64,000 bases of DNA. Source: Salinibacterium sp. (GTDB lineage Bacteria > Actinomycetota > Actinomycetes > Actinomycetales > Microbacteriaceae). This document shows positions 24,625-63,999 of this stretch, piece by piece; the first letter of the stretch is position 1, and each line of letters begins with the position of its first letter. The position numbers and the translations under genes were made by a program. The notes below the pieces were generated by a model. It ran no database searches, was not told the DNA's origin, and worked only from the letters and a program-made list of their open reading frames with translations. The stretch covers positions 826 to 64,825 of the forward strand of contig SCSV01000081.1 of the NCBI GenBank assembly GCA_004297555.1, given 5' to 3'.

Positions 24625-24800
24625 GCGCCTATCGTCCGTCGGACGTACTCGCGCACGATTGCTCGATCACGCTCGGTCACTTCGACGACGACGACCCGCG
24701 CCGTCGTCGCGCGCAGTCGCTCGCGCGCAAGACGGAGTCGCTCCACCCGTCGCTCGTCTTGACGGTCGCGCTCTCGCGCGAGCCACTCGCTGTCACTCAT
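24621..24800 (-). CDS. Early hypothetical Arg/Glu-rich protein
   Basis: AGGAG RBS; coupled ORF. Confidence 0.5.
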   Translation of the reverse strand: MSDSEWLARERDRQDERRVERLRLARERLRATTARVVVVEVTERDRAIVREYVRRTIGA

Positions 24801-25057
24801 CTCGTCCTCTCCTCTCTTCGTTCCTTCCACGCTTCCACGGCTCTATCGAGCCATGACCTGACCCTCTCCTCGTCGCTCACTCTCCAATGCTGCTCGTCCG
24901 CTCCACGCTCGATGCGTCCGTCTCGCTCTAGCCTCAGTAGTGTCGCCTCGATCTCGCTCGGGCTCGCGCCCGTGATCTCTACCAGGTACCAGGTCGAGCA
25001 CGTCCCACGACCCGCCTCGATCTCCGACAGGACGCGAGCGACGAGAGGACGCGTCAC
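24797..25057 (-). CDS. Early winged-helix-like protein
   Basis: STWYLVEITGASPSEIEATLLRLERDGRIERG...HWRV. Confidence 0.55.
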   Translation of the reverse strand: MTRPLVARVLSEIEAGRGTCSTWYLVEITGASPSEIEATLLRLERDGRIERGADEQHWRVSDEERVRSWLDRAVEAWKERREERTR

Positions 25058-26030: not shown

Positions 26031-26080
26031 AATCTAGGGCCCGCTTCGGCACGTGTCAAGAGGTTTTCTCTACTATTTCA
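26031..26080 (-). promoter_or_regulatory. Early promoter (family member)
   Basis: TGAAATAGTAGAGAAAACCTC-TTGACA (26054-26059), 17 bp, TAGATT (26031-26036). Confidence 0.8.
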
Positions 26081-26111
26081 CGCTCTCGCGCGGTCGAAAG
26101 AGCGAGTGACT

Positions 26112-26254
26112 GACAAAAATTGTCTGCCAAATCGGCGCGGGCTGTCTCCCTCCAACTATTTGGACCTCCAAGAGCCAAAACCGACAATTTTTGTCACTTT
26201 TCCGACAATTTTTGTCGCTTCGACCTACAATTTTTGTCAGTGTGACATCTTGTC
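26112..26254. repeat. Array of GACA-N5-TGTC sites (iteron/operator-like)
   Basis: GACAAAAATTGTC 26112; GACAATTTTTGTC 26183 and 26204; TACAATTTTTGTC 26226; variant GACATCTTGTC 26244. Confidence 0.85.
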
Positions 26255-26904
26255 TCACTTACACTTCTTTGCCTCAAAAGTGCGACACCATGCCCAAATC
26301 AAAGAAGTCCAAATCGAAACCCAAAGAAGTGGGCCTTTCGTCGCACTCAGACCTCTCGCAGAGCCCACTTCGAGTCCAATGTTTCCCGCGAAGTTTCGCC
26401 AAAAAACGCCTTTTTCCGAGAATTTCCCGTAAACTCGACCCCGACTTACACCGGTATCGTCCGAGCGTGCGTGTCCTCCGTCCCATTTTCGACCACTCAA
26501 TACTTTCCACTTTACCCTCCCCGAGACCTCGTTTGGCGCGTCCTCTATACGCGCAAAACCGTTCGCCTTTTTGCAAATATTTCACTCTTGCATTCTCCGC
26601 CCATTCAAATATGGGCTTCCTCAGCGACTCATCTCCTACCATATATACGTTCCCGCCCTAATCAAGTTAGTAAACTACTCTCGTCATCTCCCCAGTATCC
26701 ATGCGGGTCTAGCCTCAAAGAGTTTTCCTAGAGGCTAAAATTTTAGCATTTCCCCGCCTCCGTCACTTTAGCTCTTATCATACTCTATGACCTAGACTTA
26801 CCCTCTCTCAGCCCCGGAAACTACGTCCTCAAATTCTGCCAGAAGAAGACGCGTCCAAACCGTCTAACCCCGCTCAGTTCCACGTCCAATCTAGCCCAGT
26901 TTCG

Positions 26905-26941
26905 CGAAAACCTTGACACGCGCCGAGCCTAACCCTATCTT
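26905..26941 (+). promoter_or_regulatory. Early promoter (family member)
   Basis: GAAAACC-TTGACA (26913-26918), 17 bp, TATCTT (26936-26941); ATG 6 nt later. Confidence 0.75.
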
Positions 26942-26947
26942 AGGCTC

Positions 26948-27598
26948 ATGCTTATCTACATCATTCAAGATCAAGGTCCACGGCTCCATGAGACCGACGA
27001 AACCGCACTTTTGCAGGCATGGCGTGAGACGCTCGGAGCAAAAATGGTGACGCTTCGGGAGGCCGTGCACCATCCCGCCTTGACCCCGTACTTCGGGCAG
27101 GCTCCTAACCTACGCAGTTTAGGGCACTTATTCCGACGCCTCTCGCTCCGTCACCTGATTTACCGTCACGGGCGCTCGAAGCCTATCCTGTGGAGCGCCG
27201 TTCCACTCTTCGAGTCGACCACGGCTAGCCTCGACCTTATCGCGTCGATCCTAGCCGTCCTAGGGCCCGTCCCGCGCTCTACCAGGTCGCTCCAAGGCGA
27301 GCCTAGCCTCTCCGCCCTATCCCGGCTCTCCACGCGCTCCGTGGGGAAGCTACTGGCCCGCCTAGCGTCCGACCCACAGTCAGGCATCATGCGGGCGCCC
27401 GTCAAGCGCTCCAACGTCATCCTCTGGTCGGCCTCACCCTACACTCGCCCGGTGCCGGTCCACTCTCCCGATCCAGCCTCCGCGCTCACCCTCGCTCCCG
27501 TCGACGTAGCGTCCGCCACGCGAGACGGCGATGACGCGGGCGCCACGCGTGAGGACGATGAGGCTATCGGCACGTCCGCCCTCGACTTCGACTTCTAA
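26948..27598 (+). CDS. Tandem winged-helix-like protein resembling the primase C-terminal domain; acidic DFDF tail
   Basis: Internal duplication RSLGHLFRRL/RSVGKLLARL and RSKPILWSAVP/RSNVILWSASP. Confidence 0.6.
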   Translation: MLIYIIQDQGPRLHETDETALLQAWRETLGAKMVTLREAVHHPALTPYFGQAPNLRSLGHLFRRLSLRHLIYRHGRSKPILWSAVPLFESTTASLDLIASILAVLGPVPRSTRSLQGEPSLSALSRLSTRSVGKLLARLASDPQSGIMRAPVKRSNVILWSASPYTRPVPVHSPDPASALTLAPVDVASATRDGDDAGATREDDEAIGTSALDFDF

Positions 27599-28444: not shown

Positions 28445-28977
28445 TTCGGCACCATCACGAGTACGTCGGATGGGAAACAGTCCTCGACCGAGTCGTACTC
28501 TAGAGCATGCCACGGATTACCGTCCTCGTCGAGTCGATAGACTTTCCAAATTCGCCACGCGTAGCCGGGCCCGTCTCGGCCATCCTCAAGACACTCGCAC
28601 GTGTCGTCGCCGTGGAGACACTCGGGATATTCTCCGTTTGGGGTTTCGGCCGGTGGAGCCCCTAGACTAACAGTGATACCGTATTCTTCGTCGCCGTCGG
28701 GTCCGTCGAGATTATCGAGAACCCACTTGCGGACCCTAGGGTAGAACGCTACAAGCGCCGCAAGCTGCGCGAGTCGCCATGGGTCGTCTGTCGTCACGAC
28801 ATAGTCGGGGTGGAGCGTGTCGACTCCATCGTTACCGTCGCCGACAGACACACCATACCGCGGCAATACGGCATCGTTCGAATCGCCCCCCGCTTCGTCG
28901 AGGTTCGTGACGCTCAGTCTGTTAAATCCTCGCGAGCGTAGCAACGAGCGCTCGCGATCTGCTTCGGTTTTCTTCAT
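28441..28977 (-). CDS. Early acidic hypothetical protein
   Basis: Coupled ORF; Asp/Glu-rich. Confidence 0.6.
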   Translation of the reverse strand: MKKTEADRERSLLRSRGFNRLSVTNLDEAGGDSNDAVLPRYGVSVGDGNDGVDTLHPDYVVTTDDPWRLAQLAALVAFYPRVRKWVLDNLDGPDGDEEYGITVSLGAPPAETPNGEYPECLHGDDTCECLEDGRDGPGYAWRIWKVYRLDEDGNPWHALEYDSVEDCFPSDVLVMVPK

Positions 28978-29189
28978 GATTTCACCCTTTTGGCCTTCGG
29001 AACACGGACGAGTCTGCGTACTTCGCGGACCAGGACCATCGGCTCATCGTGGCACGTAAAAATCGCGTCCGAATCTTTCCAGAACGAATAATCTCCACGT
29101 GTCGCACTCGCGCGACTTTGACAGCTATGGCAAAATAGGAAAGCGCCGTTAGTCGGTTCCGGGAGATCCGGCCATGTGATACCGCTCAC
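28974..29189 (-). CDS. Small Zn-ribbon protein
   Basis: FCHSC...TCHDEPMVLV. Confidence 0.6.
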   Translation of the reverse strand: MSGITWPDLPEPTNGAFLFCHSCQSRASATRGDYSFWKDSDAIFTCHDEPMVLVREVRRLVRVPKAKRVKS

Positions 29190-29347
29190 GCCGCACGCTC
29201 CTTTCCGAGTTTCTTCATGATCTCCCTGACAAGTCCGCTCTCGCTCCGAAACGACCAGAGTGCCAAGCTAGGGCAGTGATACACGGTACCGTCTGACATG
29301 ATCTCATGTCCTCGGAGCGTGCCGACGACGTGGACGCGCGTGCTCAC
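29186..29347 (-). CDS. Small early hypothetical protein
   Basis: GTGA-coupled start. Confidence 0.45.
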   Translation of the reverse strand: MSTRVHVVGTLRGHEIMSDGTVYHCPSLALWSFRSESGLVREIMKKLGKERAA

Positions 29348-29490
29348 TTGACGGCTCCACTTCGGCCCGTATAGGCTCCGATGCGTGTCTCCGGGAGACT
29401 CTCCGCCTTGCTCCACTTCGTGACGCGCCCGATAATCGGGCGCCCGAACTTGCGCGGATTGTAGTGTGTGGTTTCGAGGGTGATTCGCAT
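29344..29490 (-). CDS. Small early hypothetical protein (48 aa, MRITLETTHYNPRKFGRP...)
   Basis: Read by hand; GGAGG RBS. Confidence 0.5.
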   Translation of the reverse strand: MRITLETTHYNPRKFGRPIIGRVTKWSKAESLPETRIGAYTGRSGAVK

Positions 29491-29541
29491 TTCGTGTTCC
29501 TCCAGATTAGGCGCAGCTTACCGTGCGCCTATCGCGCAGTC

Positions 29542-29739
29542 TCACGCCCGAAAATACCACTCTTCTTTGACCGCGAATCTTCCGACGTCCTCGCCGTCGC
29601 TGGTAAAAATTGTCTTGAAGAACGAGACGTCTTCTCCACTCTCGATCCTGTCGGCCGCGAGGCGAAGCGCGCGGACGAATTCGGCGGTCATGTCGGCCCC
29701 GTCCTCTAGGGCCATTTTTAGCAAGAGAGTCTTTTTCAT
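29542..29739 (-). CDS. Conserved small phage protein
   Basis: EFVRALRLAADRIESG...IFTSDGEDVGRF. Confidence 0.6.
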   Translation of the reverse strand: MKKTLLLKMALEDGADMTAEFVRALRLAADRIESGEDVSFFKTIFTSDGEDVGRFAVKEEWYFRA

Positions 29740-29740
29740 C

Positions 29741-29896
29741 TCACGCCACTTTCCGCGCCATCACGAACGGCGCTACGTATTCGACGTGCTCGATAAGATC
29801 CTGAGTCGCCTCGAACAGTTCCGAGAGTGCGAGCGCTCGTTCCGCGATTCCCTGAGAGACTTCCAGGAGCTCTTGCGTGTTCTGGTCGATCTTCAT
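29741..29896 (-). CDS. Small early protein (51 aa, MKIDQNTQELLEVSQ...)
   Basis: Read by hand; ATG 7 nt after the -10 box. Confidence 0.55.
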   Translation of the reverse strand: MKIDQNTQELLEVSQGIAERALALSELFEATQDLIEHVEYVAPFVMARKVA

Positions 29897-29903
29897 ACTC
29901 TCA

Positions 29904-29952
29904 ATCATAAGCCTGCCTCACGGTCTGTCAAGAGGTTTTTTCTACTATTTCA
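29904..29952 (-). promoter_or_regulatory. Early promoter (family member)
   Basis: TGAAATAGTAGAAAAAACCTC-TTGACA (29926-29931), 16 bp, TATGAT (29904-29909). Confidence 0.8.
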
Positions 29953-30274
29953 GGTATTTTTTAACGGTACGCTCGAAGGCCTGTGCCGTCCGATTCTCTC
30001 CGCACCATCGGAGCCTCTCAGCATACGCAGCCACATGCTCAGGGCACTCTCCGCAACGCGCCCTAGCGGTCTTCTTAATCCAGGCTGACACAGTCTCCCG
30101 TGCGTACCTGGTAGCTTCAGCCGTCCAGGAAGTGTCGAGCAAGGCGTGGCACTCGTCGCACGTGTCCGGACAATCTCCGCTCTCATCCCATGAGTACAAT
30201 GCCATCATTGTCTTGTCGTCGCCGTGGTCGGGACAGTAGAGCGTGGAGTCTCCCGCGTATGCGACGATTCTCAC
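29945..30274 (-). CDS. Early Zn-binding hypothetical protein
   Basis: LYCPDH...CPDTCDECHALL. Confidence 0.6.
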   Translation of the reverse strand: MRIVAYAGDSTLYCPDHGDDKTMMALYSWDESGDCPDTCDECHALLDTSWTAEATRYARETVSAWIKKTARARCGECPEHVAAYAERLRWCGENRTAQAFERTVKKYLK

Positions 30275-30474
30275 TCTTCACACTCGCACTGTTCCCGAGT
30301 CTGTTCCGGATACGATTCTGACCCCGCGTTGACGTATCCGCTCGTCAAGTAGTTCGCTTCGATCTTACTCACTTGCTTTTGCCTCCACAAAGAATATGTG
30401 TCGTGTCCTGGGTCAAAAGCTACACACTTCAGAAGTTTTCTTAAAATAGTTTCGGCTCAGAGAATGACCAGCTC

Positions 30475-30524
30475 GAAATAGTTGAGAAAACCCCTTGACA
30501 GGTGGAGCGGACGGGCCCTAGATT
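30475..30524 (+). promoter_or_regulatory. Early promoter (family member)
   Basis: GAAATAGTTGAGAAAACCCC-TTGACA (30495-30500), 18 bp, TAGATT (30519-30524); ATG 6 nt later. Confidence 0.8.
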
Positions 30525-30530
30525 CTTAAT

Positions 30531-30929
30531 ATGAGCGAGCGAGACACCAAGCTTGAATTGATCGACGATGTTGACGGGATGACGTATCGTGACGTGCTCG
30601 TGGATTTATGCCTGTCTCGTGCACGCGTCTTGACAAGCGCGGGCCGAAGCTCCATATTGCTAGAGCGTGTCGAGCTCCGGCCCGACGCGTGGTCGACCCG
30701 GAGCTCGCCCCCCACCCCGGGGGCCAGCTCACGGGCGCGCGCGAAACCGCGCGGCAGGACCCGGCCTGGGGGCGCCCTGAAAAGCGCGCGGCAGGACCCG
30801 GCCAAGGGGAGTTTTAAAAACCGCGCGGCAGGACCCGGTATAAAGGCTTTTCAAAAAGTGCGCGGCAGGACCCAGGGAAAACCTCTTGACAAACCTGTGG
30901 CGCCGGCCTATGTTCGAGTAGATGAATGA
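30531..30929 (+). CDS. Hypothetical protein; C-terminal half runs through the repeat array
   Basis: Plausible N-terminus after the promoter; low-complexity C-terminus. Confidence 0.4.
   Translation: MSERDTKLELIDDVDGMTYRDVLVDLCLSRARVLTSAGRSSILLERVELRPDAWSTRSSPPTPGASSRARAKPRGRTRPGGALKSARQDPAKGSFKNRAAGPGIKAFQKVRGRTQGKPLDKPVAPAYVRVDE
30749..30873. repeat. Four direct repeats GCGCGGCAGGACCC(GG), 37-bp period
   Basis: Copies start at 30749, 30786, 30823 and 30860, each preceded by an A-tract. Confidence 0.95.
30877..30914 (+). promoter_or_regulatory. Early promoter (family member)
   Basis: GAAAACCTC-TTGACA (30886-30891), 17 bp, TATGTT (30909-30914); ATG 7 nt later. Confidence 0.8.
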
Positions 30930-31266
30930 AACTCTGACCGGCCTCGCTCGCCCTTGGGGCAAACGTCGCGCCCTCGCGCGCCAGCTCAGCGGACCACCAC
31001 ACAATCTCACGCAGGAGCAGATCGCGGAACAGCTTGGCGTAACGCGCCAGCGTGTCGGGCAACTCCTAAAGGTAAAGCAGCAGCGCGCAGGAAGGCCCAG
31101 GACGCTGCGCACGCAACACAATCAGGTCTGCGGCAAGAAGATGTCGCCGAAGGTTGTTGCTGCTGTAAGACGCTTCTCTGGCGAGAAGGAAATCTCTCAC
31201 CTGGCCGCTCTCGAATACCTTGCGTCGGTCGGTGCTGCCAGTGTCTATCCAGAGGCAGGCACGTGA
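30922..31266 (+). CDS. HTH DNA-binding protein (sigma-70 region 4-like HTH)
   Basis: LTQEQIAEQLGVTRQRVGQLLK. Confidence 0.75.
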   Translation: MNETLTGLARPWGKRRALARQLSGPPHNLTQEQIAEQLGVTRQRVGQLLKVKQQRAGRPRTLRTQHNQVCGKKMSPKVVAAVRRFSGEKEISHLAALEYLASVGAASVYPEAGT

Positions 31267-31358
31267 GCCGCAGGCCAAGTGCTGCAGCATCGATCCTTGT
31301 AGCTATAGCAGCGACAGCGCTAGCTGTAGCGATCGTCTTCGGGGTGATGGGTTGGTAG
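31263..31358 (+). CDS. Small single-TM peptide (31 aa)
   Basis: GTGA-coupled start; ILVAIAATALAVAIVFGVMGW. Confidence 0.45.
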   Translation: MSRRPSAAASILVAIAATALAVAIVFGVMGW

Positions 31359-31423
31359 GCAGAGCATTGCTGCTTGGCCTTCTGCTACTTGCCAACGTGG
31401 CTGGTGCGCCACTTAGGAGAAAC

Positions 31424-31696
31424 ATGGCTTCCAAGGAAACGACCGCAAACATCTCTTACAACCAGCACTACAGCAAGTGGACATACAGCTTCCAGGACTC
31501 AACAGGAAGACATAGGTTCGGGGCTCTTCCTGGGATGTCAGACACGTCTCCGCAGACAGTCCTAGAAGAGTTCAAGACCCTACTGACGGTCGACGACCTG
31601 CACCACCTCGAGGAGATCGTGATCCTGATGCCACCGTGTCCTGAGGGCTGCATCGCGCCGCACACGTTGAAGATTGGGCCAACGGCGTTCAGATGA
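31424..31696 (+). CDS. Hypothetical protein
   Basis: AGGAG RBS before MASKET. Confidence 0.55.
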   Translation: MASKETTANISYNQHYSKWTYSFQDSTGRHRFGALPGMSDTSPQTVLEEFKTLLTVDDLHHLEEIVILMPPCPEGCIAPHTLKIGPTAFR

Positions 31697-32094
31697 CGAG
31701 CGTCTGGTGGATTGAGGACGGCGCGTACAGTAACTACGCCGTGCTAGGCGTCTTCTCGTCAGAGCAGAACGCACACACTGCGTTGCAGGAACTGCGCAGC
31801 AAAACAGCTGACATCGTCGAGGTAACGCTCGATGGTGGTATCGACATGCTGAAACAGGGTTTGCATATTTTCGTCGTCACAATGTGTCGCGACGGCAGTA
31901 TTGAGAGTCTCCTGCAGCCACACACATTCAACGTAGATGATGATGATGTGAAGCCGCACCTGTACAAGGACGCGCTGAGCGAAGGGTTCCTAATGCACAT
32001 CAACGTGTGGGCGAAGTCAGAGAAGCACGCCATCAAGGTAGCGAACGAGCACAGAACAATGCTCGTCGCCAGCGGAAAGTGGCCAGGCGCGTGA
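31693..32094 (+). CDS. Conserved phage protein (DUF7336-like N-terminus)
   Basis: VWWIEDGAYSNYAVLGVFSSEQNA. Confidence 0.6.
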   Translation: MTSVWWIEDGAYSNYAVLGVFSSEQNAHTALQELRSKTADIVEVTLDGGIDMLKQGLHIFVVTMCRDGSIESLLQPHTFNVDDDDVKPHLYKDALSEGFLMHINVWAKSEKHAIKVANEHRTMLVASGKWPGA

Positions 32095-32456
32095 AGAAAA
32101 AGCATGCCACTAGAGGCGCCACTTATTTAGGTAGCATTTGCCGGAGATGCGGCGCTGGTGTTCGGTATGTCAGTACTGGCAGGTGCGTCGGCTGCATGAA
32201 ATTGTGGGTTACTAAGTCGTTCTTGGTATCGACGTTACGTGCCCTAATGCGTGGGAAGCCATGTCATATTTGTCAACTTCCGATGACGCATCCATGCGCC
32301 GACCACGATTCAAGATTTAGTGATGTCCGTGGTTGGCTTTGTCATAAGTGTAATCGTGGCCTTGGACAATTTAACGATGACCAACGTCTAGTGCAGCTTG
32401 CCGCCAACTATTTGTTGATGCATCGGACCACTCACGCTTTCCGGGAATCAGCATGA
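32091..32456 (+). CDS. Endonuclease VII-type His-Me finger nuclease
   Basis: CHIC...CADHDS..SDVRGWLCHKCNRGLGQFNDD. Confidence 0.8.
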   Translation: MKKKHATRGATYLGSICRRCGAGVRYVSTGRCVGCMKLWVTKSFLVSTLRALMRGKPCHICQLPMTHPCADHDSRFSDVRGWLCHKCNRGLGQFNDDQRLVQLAANYLLMHRTTHAFRESA

Positions 32457-32659
32457 GTCCGGCCCACGCCCCAGACCCGTATCGGATCCCCTACACGCGC
32501 AAGACCGCAAGGCCTCGCAGCGCCCGCTATTACGGCTTCGCGCTGGACCCGAAGAATCTCCCACCCCTAAAGCCCTACCGGCCGGGACCAGACCCTGGCT
32601 TGCCGGATCCGAAGGACGAGCACGAGGACCTTCCCCTGAGAGACTGGAGTAAGCGATGA
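32453..32659 (+). CDS. Small Pro-rich protein with EHEDLPLRDW motif
   Basis: Coupled at both ends. Confidence 0.5.
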   Translation: MSPAHAPDPYRIPYTRKTARPRSARYYGFALDPKNLPPLKPYRPGPDPGLPDPKDEHEDLPLRDWSKR

Positions 32660-32997
32660 TCATCTACACCGATTGCACGTGTGGCCGCGGGAACCCGCGC
32701 GACGATGAGAACGATGCCGAGCTCATGGACCTAGGGCATTGCTGGCACGACGAGAATTGCCCGGTGATGGCGGAGTTTCTACGAAGAGAGGATGATCTCG
32801 ACCCACGACTCACATGCGAGATCACGGCTGTCGACGGTACGGATCGCTGCATGTTCATCATCACGCACGCCGAGCTCGGGAAGCTGTTGGGTGTCCAAGA
32901 CCCTGTCGCCGCAAAGATTTCCCTGGAACGCGCCGCGCGCTACGTCGGCCGCGCCCTCGCCGAGGGCAGGGCCGCACACGACTGGTGTGTCGGATGA
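32656..32997 (+). CDS. Hypothetical Cys/His protein
   Basis: CTC...HCWHDENCP; coupled ORF. Confidence 0.55.
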   Translation: MIIYTDCTCGRGNPRDDENDAELMDLGHCWHDENCPVMAEFLRREDDLDPRLTCEITAVDGTDRCMFIITHAELGKLLGVQDPVAAKISLERAARYVGRALAEGRAAHDWCVG

Positions 32998-33200
32998 GAG
33001 GTAAGCCCGTGCGGGACGCGAAGAGCCAAAACGCGCCCCCATGCGACAGGCTGTTCCGCGGAGAGCAGTGCGGCGCGCCTTCGGTGGGACGAGTCCGAAG
33101 CGCTCGCGGGCAGGAGTTCAATGTGTGTATTGTCCATAAGGGCCTGTGGGAGTCAAACCAGCGCGGACAGGCGACGCATCGCGGTCGTCTTGCTAGATGA
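32994..33200 (+). CDS. Small Zn-finger-like protein
   Basis: ATGA coupling; C..C...C..H. Confidence 0.45.
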   Translation: MRGKPVRDAKSQNAPPCDRLFRGEQCGAPSVGRVRSARGQEFNVCIVHKGLWESNQRGQATHRGRLAR

Positions 33201-33439
33201 ACGCTCAAAAGCGCCGAGTCCGAGCGATGCGTGCGACTCTGCCCGAGCGTGTTCGAAAGAGGACCCTGTTCGGTTTGCTTTGTACACCACGCAACTGGTG
33301 CCGCGCCCAATACACGCACGTAGGCAAAGTCACCACCACTATGGATCTGCCGCTCGATAAGATCGAGTTGCTGGATTGGGTTGGGACCAACGAGGAGGTG
33401 AGTTTCAATCTCATGGCCGACGGTACCTGGAGTTTGTGA
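33197..33439 (+). CDS. Hypothetical protein
   Basis: Coupled ORF. Confidence 0.55.
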   Translation: MNAQKRRVRAMRATLPERVRKRTLFGLLCTPRNWCRAQYTHVGKVTTTMDLPLDKIELLDWVGTNEEVSFNLMADGTWSL

Positions 33440-33666
33440 TGATCAAGCACCCGTGGCGTCGCGGCAAGGGCTCAAGCAACAAGGCTGGCGGCTCCCACTG
33501 CGAGCGCCTCCATCAATGGCCACGCTTCGCGACTGTCCACGAGCCAATCCCAGTTTTTATCCCCCCGATAGAGCATGAGGATGTTCCGCTCGGGCAGTGG
33601 GCGGCAACACCAGCAACTCCAATCCGACCATTCAAATTCGAGGAGGCCAGATGTCGGTCAAAATGA
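33439..33666 (+). CDS. Small protein with EHEDVPLGQW motif
   Basis: TGATG coupling; GGAG RBS. Confidence 0.5.
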   Translation: MIKHPWRRGKGSSNKAGGSHCERLHQWPRFATVHEPIPVFIPPIEHEDVPLGQWAATPATPIRPFKFEEARCRSK

Positions 33667-33971
33667 CGCTCCCGGCCGGCACCGAGCTCGAGCTTGAGTC
33701 TCCGGTAATCAACGATGGGGTACAACAGTATCTCAAAAAAGTAATCGGGCGCGGCGAGGCTCTGACTCCGGAATTCGCAGAGGCCTGCAGGCAAGAGCTG
33801 GTCGCGTTAAGGGTACGCCACGCCATCGCATGTGACAAGGTGCTCGGGCTCGAGAAGAAGATTGCGGACGCCAAGGCTCGTGTCGAAAGTCTCGAGCGGG
33901 AGATCGCTAACCAGCGCCGCACAGCAGACCCGGAGGACATACCCATCGGAAAATGGACGACGCGGACGTGA
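33651..33971 (+). CDS. Coiled-coil protein with PEDIPIGKW motif
   Basis: GAGGAGG RBS. Confidence 0.6.
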   Translation: MSVKMTLPAGTELELESPVINDGVQQYLKKVIGRGEALTPEFAEACRQELVALRVRHAIACDKVLGLEKKIADAKARVESLEREIANQRRTADPEDIPIGKWTTRT

Positions 33972-34252
33972 GTGTCGAAAGGGTGAGGCTCACCCTGGAC
34001 CAGCTCGACCTCGACAAGAACGTCCTAAAGCAAAGCGCTCTCGAGTTCGCCTCGAACCCGGGGTTCAATGAATGGGTGGATCTGCGCGACCAAATGGCGA
34101 CCGTAGAAGCGCGCCTGAAAACGTTGCTACAGCAGACGCACGAGTCGTCGGTCGACGAGAAGGTGAGGCTTCTGCACGAGCGCGATACTTGGCCCTGGAT
34201 CTACACGCTCAGCGAGGTTGCGTTCCTGATGTCTCCTGACGAGGGCTCCTAG
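33968..34252 (+). CDS. Hypothetical helical protein
   Basis: GTGA coupling; last gene of the rightward operon. Confidence 0.55.
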   Translation: MSVERVRLTLDQLDLDKNVLKQSALEFASNPGFNEWVDLRDQMATVEARLKTLLQQTHESSVDEKVRLLHERDTWPWIYTLSEVAFLMSPDEGS

Positions 34253-63750: not shown

Positions 63751-63999
63751 TTACGGGGCGTAGAATGTGCCGGCGCGGGAATTCACGCCGACCGCAGTGA
63801 TCTGGGTCCCGGCGCTCGTGTTTTTCGAGGCCAGGAAAGGAACATGCAACATCAAGGGGCCATCGTTTTCAATCTTCGGGTCGTTGACCTCGAGGCGCAT
63901 GTCGAAAATCTTGAGATCGGCGCTCCGGTTGGTTGCCTGGATCATCTTAAACTCCATGGTAACCAACGTGGCGGCGGTAATGAGGTCTCGTACCGTCAT
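63751..63999 (-). CDS. Tail tube protein, C-terminal fragment (cut by window edge)
   Basis: Position; beta-rich FDMRLEVNDPKIENDGPLMLHVPFLAS. Confidence 0.65.
   Translation of the reverse strand: MTVRDLITAATLVTMEFKMIQATNRSADLKIFDMRLEVNDPKIENDGPLMLHVPFLASKNTSAGTQITAVGVNSRAGTFYAP

Follow-up and report, generated by a model that had tools for sequence, protein, structure and literature searches.

Four exact copies of GCGCGGCAGGACCC lie at 30749, 30786, 30823 and 30860, all on the plus strand and each 37 bp from the next, just upstream of a small HTH gene in the early region of a tailed-phage genome. The repeats are real, exactly phased and constrained at the DNA level. We read the four units as head-to-tail sites for one sequence-specific DNA-binding protein, forming a private cis-regulatory array of the rightward early operon, a reading that we put at about even odds. 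Binding, the identity of the binder and the sign of the regulation are what we infer; the product of the adjacent HTH gene (30922-31266) is probably the binder, as the likeliest and most economical candidate, and autoregulation by this protein is plausible.

The window, i.e. the whole 64-kb stretch of DNA analysed, covers bases 826-64825 of a contig (C263; 65,759 bp) that is the second longest of a fragmented 2.25-Mb metagenome-assembled genome. The assembly is 93% complete, and GC content is 60.8% in C263 versus 64.8% in the remaining assembly. The contig is a tailed-phage genome of roughly 66 kb, with structural genes for the small and large terminase, portal, a protease-capsid fusion, scaffold and tail proteins, and with genes for a 952-aa primase-helicase, a helicase, a Sak4-like protein and a C5 methyltransferase; with few exceptions these genes are on the minus strand. 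In the Logan assembly of run SRR8426595 the phage is found on a 65,900-bp contig, which agrees letter for letter over 28922-33266 but is rotated by about 10.8 kb, and we infer from the two contigs that the phage genome is complete, and circular or circularly permuted. Neither a tyrosine integrase gene nor a CbiA/ParA-type gene was found on C263, and the contig has the appearance of a lytic tailed-phage genome that lacks lysogeny and plasmid modules. The best identity of the primase-helicase to proteins of isolate phages is at most 32%; the phage is uncultured and has no close relative. The array sits in the sole strand-switch region, among small early genes. On its left, operons read leftward have their ends at 30274-30376; the rightward operon extends from 30531 to about 34252, and its downstream ORFs are small unknowns or endonuclease VII. 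The array and its parts are as follows.

Whole array: 30733..30880, plus strand, four head-to-tail 37-bp units in the register 30733/30770/30807/30844 (repeat search and Tandem Repeats Finder).
37-bp register unit starting at 30733, plus strand: GGGCGCGCGCGAAACCGCGCGGCAGGACCCGGCCTGG.
37-bp register unit starting at 30770, plus strand: GGGCGCCCTGAAAAGCGCGCGGCAGGACCCGGCCAAG.
37-bp register unit starting at 30807, plus strand: GGGAGTTTTAAAAACCGCGCGGCAGGACCCGGTATAA.
37-bp register unit starting at 30844, plus strand: AGGCTTTTCAAAAAGTGCGCGGCAGGACCCAGGGAAA.
Copy 1: 30743..30764, plus strand, conserved unit GAAACCGCGCGGCAGGACCCGG, centred at about -169 relative to the ATG and predicted transcription start at 30922.
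Copy 2: 30780..30801, plus strand, conserved unit AAAAGCGCGCGGCAGGACCCGG, centred at about -132.
Copy 3: 30817..30838, plus strand, conserved unit AAAACCGCGCGGCAGGACCCGG, centred at about -95.
Copy 4: 30854..30875, plus strand, conserved unit AAAAGTGCGCGGCAGGACCCAG, centred at about -58, in the place that GAAATAGT takes in three sister promoters.

The first-pass annotation had reported a core recurring exactly every 37 bp, and Tandem Repeats Finder agrees (period 37, score 134), as does the independent Logan assembly, in which all four copies are present without a difference in sequence. Conservation extends beyond the 14-mer to a unit of about 20-22 bp, which can be written (G/A)AAA-NN-GCGCGGCAGGACCC-(G/A)G, with a GG about 10 bp upstream of the A-tract; conservation by column is gGGcg.....aAAA.cGCGCGGCAGGACCCgG...a. 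over the 37-bp register, where the 20 invariant columns are GG at 2-3, AAA at 12-14, the 14-mer at 17-30 and G at 32. Cores are asymmetric and keep a single strand orientation. Within a unit the three conserved blocks are about 10.5 bp apart, which places them on one face of the helix, while successive units are offset by half a turn: 37 bp is about 126 Å, and the earlier figure of about 3.5 turns is correct arithmetic, so that neighbouring units look out from alternating faces. The linkers had been described as A/T tracts. An A-tract (A4-5) does precede every core, 2 bp from its GC-rich sequence, but linker GC drops toward the promoter from 0.74 through 0.48 to 0.30, and the first linker is thus GC-rich. 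The array as a whole is the richest local stretch, with GC of 0.68-0.81 against 0.54-0.66 just downstream.

Identity from copy to copy is 90% over the 22-column unit and 41% over the linker columns. When the invariant and variable labels were shuffled, a run of 14 invariant columns arose in 27 of 200,000 trials (p about 1e-4), and this clustering points to conservation of a specific word rather than to leftover identity from a recent duplication. The word is particular to the array. At up to two mismatches the 64-kb window has only two further weak matches to GCGCGGCAGGACCC, and a count of six was reached in none of 100 shuffles; the best other match in the phage to the array unit scores 20/27 (63797-63833, minus strand). 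The remaining 2.25-Mb assembly has three one-mismatch matches compared with four for a reversed control pattern, and hence shows no enrichment of the word. A CRISPR mini-array or RNA anti-CRISPR, for which we required a repeat of at least 23 nt with spacers, matching a host CRISPR repeat, was rejected: the unit here is 20-22 nt at period 37, too short a period for such an array, and a k=18 scan of the assembly found no repeat array of any kind.

The promoters and other features around the array are listed next.

P30495: 30475..30524, plus strand, GAAATAGTTGAGAAAACCCC-TTGACA-N18-TAGATT with the full upstream element and an ATG (30531) 6 nt later.
ORF30531: 30531..30929, plus strand, a 132-codon open frame, predicted to be leaderless from P30495, that crosses the array in three phases.
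P30630: 30630..30658, plus strand, TTGACA-N17-CATATT, a consensus-like candidate promoter without the upstream element of the family.
Palindrome: 30671..30707, no strand assigned, a 37-bp imperfect palindrome with 16-nt arms and a 5-nt centre, between P30630 and the array.
P30886: 30877..30914, plus strand, an extended -35 GAAAACCTC-TTGACA, a 17-bp spacer and the -10 TATGTT.
HTH gene: 30922..31266, plus strand, encoding a 114-aa orphan HTH protein with the HTH at residues 27-50, a basic AGRPRT arm and a helical C-terminal half.

P30886 and P30495 belong to a promoter family of four that share GAAAACCYCTTGACA (GAAAACCYC-TTGACA), at 26059 (minus), 29931 (minus), 30495 (plus) and 30886 (plus); the window has these four occurrences where none is expected, since shuffles give none. 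Each of the four has an ATG 5-7 nt after its -10. About 10 bp further upstream, three of them carry GAAATAGT; only P30886 is without it, and there the core of copy 4 stands in its place. The claim that the last copy abuts the promoter of the HTH gene holds: the -35 TTGACA of P30886 starts at 30886, 12 bp past the end of the last core (30873), and the ATG at 30922 follows the -10 by seven nt, so the predicted transcript is leaderless. By its sequence P30886 is a leaderless sigma-70-type promoter, and its TTGACA-N17-TATGTT matches the consensus at 10 of 12 positions. With 30922 as +1, the array reaches from -179 to -49. The core promoter is free of copies, including degenerate ones in phase; a putative fifth copy over P30886 was rejected, as its score of 11/27 lies within the top 10% of the background and is not significant. 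P30495 lies 390 bp upstream of P30886, and its transcripts should run through the array.

The palindrome between P30630 and the array is not followed by a T-run, and could be a second operator or an RNA hairpin. It shares the 7-mer GACCCGG with the core, a likeness that we discount since this 7-mer occurs in the window at chance frequency (19 observed, 16.5 expected).

ORF30531 is probably translated, since its ATG is 6 nt past the -10 of P30495, as in the other leaderless starts of this phage; the frame is also called as a gene in the Logan record. Its first 50 or so codons look coding and the remainder does not. The former show a coding-type GC pattern by codon position (0.62/0.40/0.66) and an in-frame score that beats the out-of-frame scores, while over 30681-30929 the pattern is flat (0.66/0.67/0.66) and the log-likelihood falls between the coding and off-frame ranges. 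In a low-confidence AlphaFold model (pLDDT 54), everything but a single helix (residues 19-36) is disordered. Pfam and PHROG profile searches gave no family match, and the possibility that the ORF encodes a folded DNA-binding protein was set aside on these grounds, a VirB-like HTH echo being non-significant (E = 1.7). The frame reads the successive cores differently, as noted before (RGRTR, ARQDP, RAAGP, RGRTQ). By our estimate, a frame that stays open across the array has a chance probability of about 0.08, no more than mildly unlikely, which together with the flat codon signal argues that the array was not shaped by coding. The first-pass annotation had placed selection at the DNA level; the clustering of invariant columns, the lack of a codon-position GC signal and the predicted disorder of the encoded tail all favour this.

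The HTH protein stands alone. Among about 40 early-region proteins scanned against Pfam it is the only one to exceed the cut-off of an HTH family; the protein of 24797-25057 has a sub-threshold winged helix. Its match is to Sigma70_r4 (PF04545; E=2e-5, 24.4 bits with a cut-off of 24.1), limited to residues 27-50 and to 24 of the 50 profile positions, and a dozen other HTH families match the same residues; the protein also matches PHROG HTH families. A word-indexed protein search returned only the protein itself, but a full HMMER pass over 1.8 billion representatives gave three remote matches. P0002, which is among the three, and the related P0005 and P0006 are phage proteins with at least six tandem HTH modules of about 48 residues. 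Aligned by module, the query and these relatives share a layout of helix, HTH and, at constant spacing behind the recognition helix, a basic R-P-R arm, which is AGRPRT in our protein and YRRPRR in the relatives. A single-sequence AF2 model of low confidence (pLDDT 67) has two three-helix bundles joined by a basic linker; Foldseek of this model against the PDB found nothing below E = 1. Arms of the G-R-P type, such as AT-hooks and the GRPR arm of Hin, occupy the narrow minor groove of A-tracts beside a site read in the major groove. The AGRPRT arm would fit a unit made of an A-tract and a GC core, a correspondence that is suggestive only.

The first-pass annotation had also proposed to look for the core in host genomes and related phages, and that search came back empty of relatives. 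Among GenBank phages nothing matched 29.5-32.5 kb by blastn or the HTH protein by tblastn. IMG/VR had nothing for the double core, the HTH protein, a 582-aa neighbour or one of the remote homologues (P0003), and the downstream 133-aa protein matched only itself in a word-indexed search. Two cores with a gap of 10-40 nt gave nine matches in JGI metagenomes and nine in GTDB genomes. All 18 belong to unrelated tandem repeats that are rich in GC, mostly actinobacterial and of periods from 15 to 54; one of them has the word as an arm of a terminator-like hairpin, and the two with period 37 have different linkers and lack the A-tract, promoter and HTH context. Thus no related array was found in GenBank phages, IMG/VR, JGI metagenomes or GTDB genomes. 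Near the multi-HTH remote homologues (loci L017-L019), which lie in tightly packed phage operons, there is no non-coding array.

Several other accounts of the repeats were weighed. Since the unit length is no multiple of three and the array lies inside an open frame, the repeats might be a product of slippage, either functionless or serving as a frameshift or contingency switch in which one unit more or fewer would put the tail of ORF30531 into stop-bearing frames; the other two frames do have five stops over 30733-30929, and similar GC-rich words make tandem arrays of many periods in unrelated genomes. We think this quite unlikely. An exact core between linkers of 41% identity is a strongly non-uniform divergence, unlike that of a recent neutral duplication, and leaves only 14-22 bp of identity for slippage; moreover, the tail that would be switched lacks a coding signature and is predicted to be disordered, and both assemblies have four copies. 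The predicted transcripts of P30495 and P30630 carry the array in the sense direction, so it might instead act as RNA, either as reiterated sites for an RNA-binding protein (e.g. a CsrA sponge with GGA in loops) or as a translational brake on ORF30531. The CAGGAC in each core could sit in a short CGG/CCG stem-loop. This account we hold to be very unlikely, as the RNA folds no better than shuffles (z = -1.03), has no Rfam match even at E = 10, and has an exact 37-nt phase and a conserved A-tract that are more typical of DNA sites. Its CsrA-sponge version is unsupported, the 93%-complete assembly having no CsrA gene.

The remaining accounts give the array a role in replication or positioning. 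As a second or auxiliary origin, its units would be iterons for a phage initiator, e.g. the primase-helicase or the solo primase-C-terminal-like protein of 26948-27598, and transcription from P30495 or P30886 would activate it as pR does at lambda ori. The phage has the primase-helicase, the linkers become progressively AT-richer toward the promoter, and four direct repeats with A-tracts, in a reading frame beside promoters, recall lambda ori. Nevertheless, this is unlikely. The array is GC-rich, and DNA of 40-43% GC is reached only 250-400 bp upstream, at the divergent promoters; the surrounding 3.9 kb are without a DnaA box; the repeats recur every 37 bp rather than at the two-turn 21-24 bp typical of iterons, which are direct repeats of 17-22 bp; and intrinsic curvature is average in a dinucleotide wedge model, an approximate result with wedge angles after Bolshoy et al. 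1991. An iteron origin should have its initiator gene at the iterons, and no initiator-like gene was recognized, the neighbours being the orphan HTH gene and an ORF that could not be assigned, neither of which matches a Rep or O family, although their orphan status limits what this excludes. Finally, 26180-26239 appears from its sequence to be the better candidate: it is the other array of the phage, with 21/22-bp palindromic repeats GACAATTTTTGTC / ACCGACAATTTTTGTC at a period of 21/22 bp in an 850-bp non-coding stretch, adjoins the primase-tail-like gene and coincides with the window-wide maximum of curvature (about 26.19 kb). A centromere-like or genome-positioning site, with the HTH protein as adaptor in the manner of sopC/SopB, parC/ParR or tubC/TubR, had been suggested as well. 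A tandem direct-repeat array upstream of the gene for a small DNA-binding protein has that general look, and the HTH protein has weak, sub-threshold matches to HTH_ParB (E = 0.039; 14.6 bits with a cut-off of 22.6) and KorA (E = 0.003). F plasmid sopC, likewise, is made of 12 direct repeats of 43 bp with one 16-bp SopB binding motif each (PMC3177203). We regard such a role as highly improbable here: beyond that HTH_ParB match, the Pfam profile search placed the protein in none of the ParB, RHH-ParR and TubR families, the missing CbiA/ParA-type ATPase and tyrosine integrase and the lytic appearance of the genome speak against a partition system, and where such systems have a motor NTPase gene (ParA, ParM or TubZ) in the same operon, the operon ORFs of 31424-34252 are small, with none of NTPase size and no NTPase family match in the Pfam and PHROG scans.

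Returning to a regulator-site array, we can ask which kind it might be. A Cro/CI-type autoregulated repressor, whose operator covers the -35, -10 or start, was rejected, as the sites end at -49 and the next in-phase position is the insignificant one scoring 11/27; so was its dyad-symmetric operator for a dimer, as the cores are asymmetric and on one strand, the palindrome at 30671-30707 being separate. Classical repression of P30886 is not evident because no site overlaps the core promoter. For the wrapped operator proposed earlier, the same lack of a site over the core promoter is unfavourable, as is the average predicted curvature, which also led us to drop an intrinsic bend as the basis of the array. 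An array for class I-type activation should have all its sites beyond the -35 and the nearest of them close to -60, and the centres at -58, -95, -132 and -169 agree with this. It should also serve a weak, activator-dependent core promoter; P30886, with a perfect -35 and a good -10, does not look activator-dependent.

In the mechanism that we propose, the copies at -179 to -49 of P30886 are putative docking sites for the regulator. Because copy 4 takes the place of GAAATAGT in the sister promoters, a protein bound to it would stand at the upstream (alpha-CTD/UP) position, from which it could contact RNA polymerase or displace it. The array would thereby give P30886 its own control input in place of GAAATAGT, and its occupancy would tune P30886 separately from the other early promoters. 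Proteins on the array may also obstruct transcription and translation from P30495. If the HTH protein is the binder, the GC core would be recognized by its HTH through the major groove and the A-tract by its AGRPRT arm through the minor groove, and binding upstream of its own gene would make a self-regulating module. On straight DNA, the half-integral spacing of 37 bp would keep neighbouring small proteins out of contact, so the sites are either additive or occupied over about 30 bp per unit, with the three conserved blocks on one face. It could also be that the HTH protein acts on GAAATAGT of the other promoters and that the array is left to another factor. A more elaborate version is a long shot: a new kind of early switch made up of the array and the two leaderless genes on either side, in which a regulator polymerises on 3.5-turn sites that face alternate sides and are embedded in the coding sequence of the upstream early gene. 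Occupancy would then block transcription and translation from an immediate-early P30495 and take the alpha-CTD position of P30886, and the operon would be handed from the former promoter to the latter.

If the regulator-array reading is true, the phage supplies a compact pair of regulator and site from a lineage without a cultured relative, and possibly an orthogonal part for promoter control. The half-integral phase of 37 bp and the two-part site would make it a test case for the roles of spacing and minor-groove arms in cooperative binding. The general picture would be unchanged, as arrays of binding sites beside small regulator genes are common and this is a fairly ordinary kind of element. 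A more useful by-product may be the map of the early control region, with a four-member family of predicted leaderless promoters, one of them apparently rewired by the array, and an origin candidate at 26.2 kb.

Direct-repeat regulator sites upstream of promoters are known from OmpR/PhoB boxes, the TTGC-N6-TTGC of lambda CII and the p4 sites of phi29, with periods of 10-22 bp. Our array resembles these in being asymmetric, head-to-tail, and upstream of and near the -35; in having its proximal site at about -58, where such regulators meet alpha-CTD; and in having the candidate regulator gene in the same early circuit. It differs in its period of 37 bp (3.5 turns), in its promoter with a consensus -35, in the lack of sequence relatives for both protein and site, and in lying inside an upstream open frame. 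The iterons of lambda ori, which are bound by the O protein, are dyad-symmetric, closely spaced and curved, with an AT-rich flank for unwinding. The likeness there is in the four direct repeats with A-tract linkers within a reading frame and in the transcription that would pass nearby, whereas the array has neither dyad symmetry nor close spacing, and neither intrinsic curvature nor an AT-rich flank. With sopC/SopB the array shares a unit much larger than the binding motif, a conserved core with a freer linker, and an HTH protein as the (candidate) binder, but sopC motifs are inverted repeats located downstream of sopAB, which include a ParA-type motor, while the cores here are asymmetric and abut a promoter, and no ParA-type gene was found. 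In Hin, the GRPR arm is N-terminal to the HTH and the protein has a recombinase domain. Recognition by Hin/Gin and other HTH proteins assisted by AT-hooks nonetheless offers a parallel to an HTH followed by AGRPRT and to an A4-5 tract placed 2 bp from a GC-rich core; since the arm of our protein comes after the HTH and no homology was detected, this resemblance would be one of mechanism only.

The full contig of this tailed phage (C263) is 65,759 bp long and its counterpart in an independent assembly, Logan contig SRR8426595_1942, is 65,900 bp; these near-equal lengths, together with ends rotated by ~10.8 kb, suggest a complete genome of ~65.8 kb that is circular or circularly permuted. The best origin candidate of this phage is a non-coding stretch of 850 bp, where the wedge model of DNA curvature places the strongest predicted bend in the whole window, ~130 degrees over 63 bp, at the ACCGACAATTTTTGTC repeats. 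It is flanked by a leftward early promoter, P26059, and on the other side by a lone rightward gene (26948-27598).

26060-26912: non-coding stretch carrying 21/22-bp repeats of ACCGACAATTTTTGTC
26180-26239: array of ACCGACAATTTTTGTC repeats, with an inverted copy near 26112

P26059 belongs to a family of four early promoters sharing the extended -35 GAAAACCYCTTGACA, a number to be set against zero expected by chance in the window. Three of the four have GAAATAGT upstream of this element, and since in every member an ATG lies 5-7 nt downstream of the -10, their transcripts are predicted to be leaderless. An abbreviated form of the family -35, GAAAACC-TTGACA, is found at P26913.

26054-26079, minus strand: early promoter
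29926-29951, minus strand: early promoter
30475-30500, plus strand: early promoter
30877-30891, plus strand: early promoter

In contrast to the neighbouring genes, one small ORF is not leaderless; its stop codon overlaps the GTG start of 29945-30274 (GTGA).

30272-30376, minus strand: ORF of 34 codons, MSKIEANYLTSGYVNAGSESYPEQTREQCECEE, with ribosome-binding site GGAGG

A possible second operator lies between a promoter-like site at 30630 and the array of four 37-bp units, beginning 13 bp past the -10-like CATATT of that site. No T-run follows this palindrome, which has GACCCGG in common with the repeat core, a 7-mer occurring at chance level in the window.

30671-30707: imperfect palindrome of 37 bp, its 16-nt arms 88% complementary around a 5-nt centre

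Outside the array, the closest look-alike of the 37-bp unit sits in coding sequence, and the resemblance is probably due to chance.

63797-63833, minus strand: look-alike TGGCCTCGAAAAACACGAGCGCCGGGACCCAGATCAC, matching the consensus at 20 of 27 columns

The 14-mer core itself, GCGCGGCAGGACCC, recurs in tandem arrays of many periods (15-54 bp) at loci L021-L029 and L008-L016, from unrelated, mostly actinobacterial genomes and soil metagenomes; in Actinosynnema (L027) it forms one arm of a terminator-like hairpin. We take these arrays as convergence of GC-rich repeats, not homology.

P0002, a remote phage homologue of the HTH protein encoded at 30922-31266, and its relatives P0005 and P0006 consist of HTH modules of ~48 residues repeated six to nine times in tandem, each closing with a basic RRPRR arm.

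L017, 5826-7145: tandem-HTH protein P0005
L018, 1343-2662: tandem-HTH protein P0002
L019, 981-1856: tandem-HTH protein P0006

An AcrVA2-like gene lies directly 3′ of the poly-HTH gene in L017 and L018. No tandem DNA array is present on the short contigs L017-L019; for poly-HTH proteins of this kind, such an array would be the expected target.
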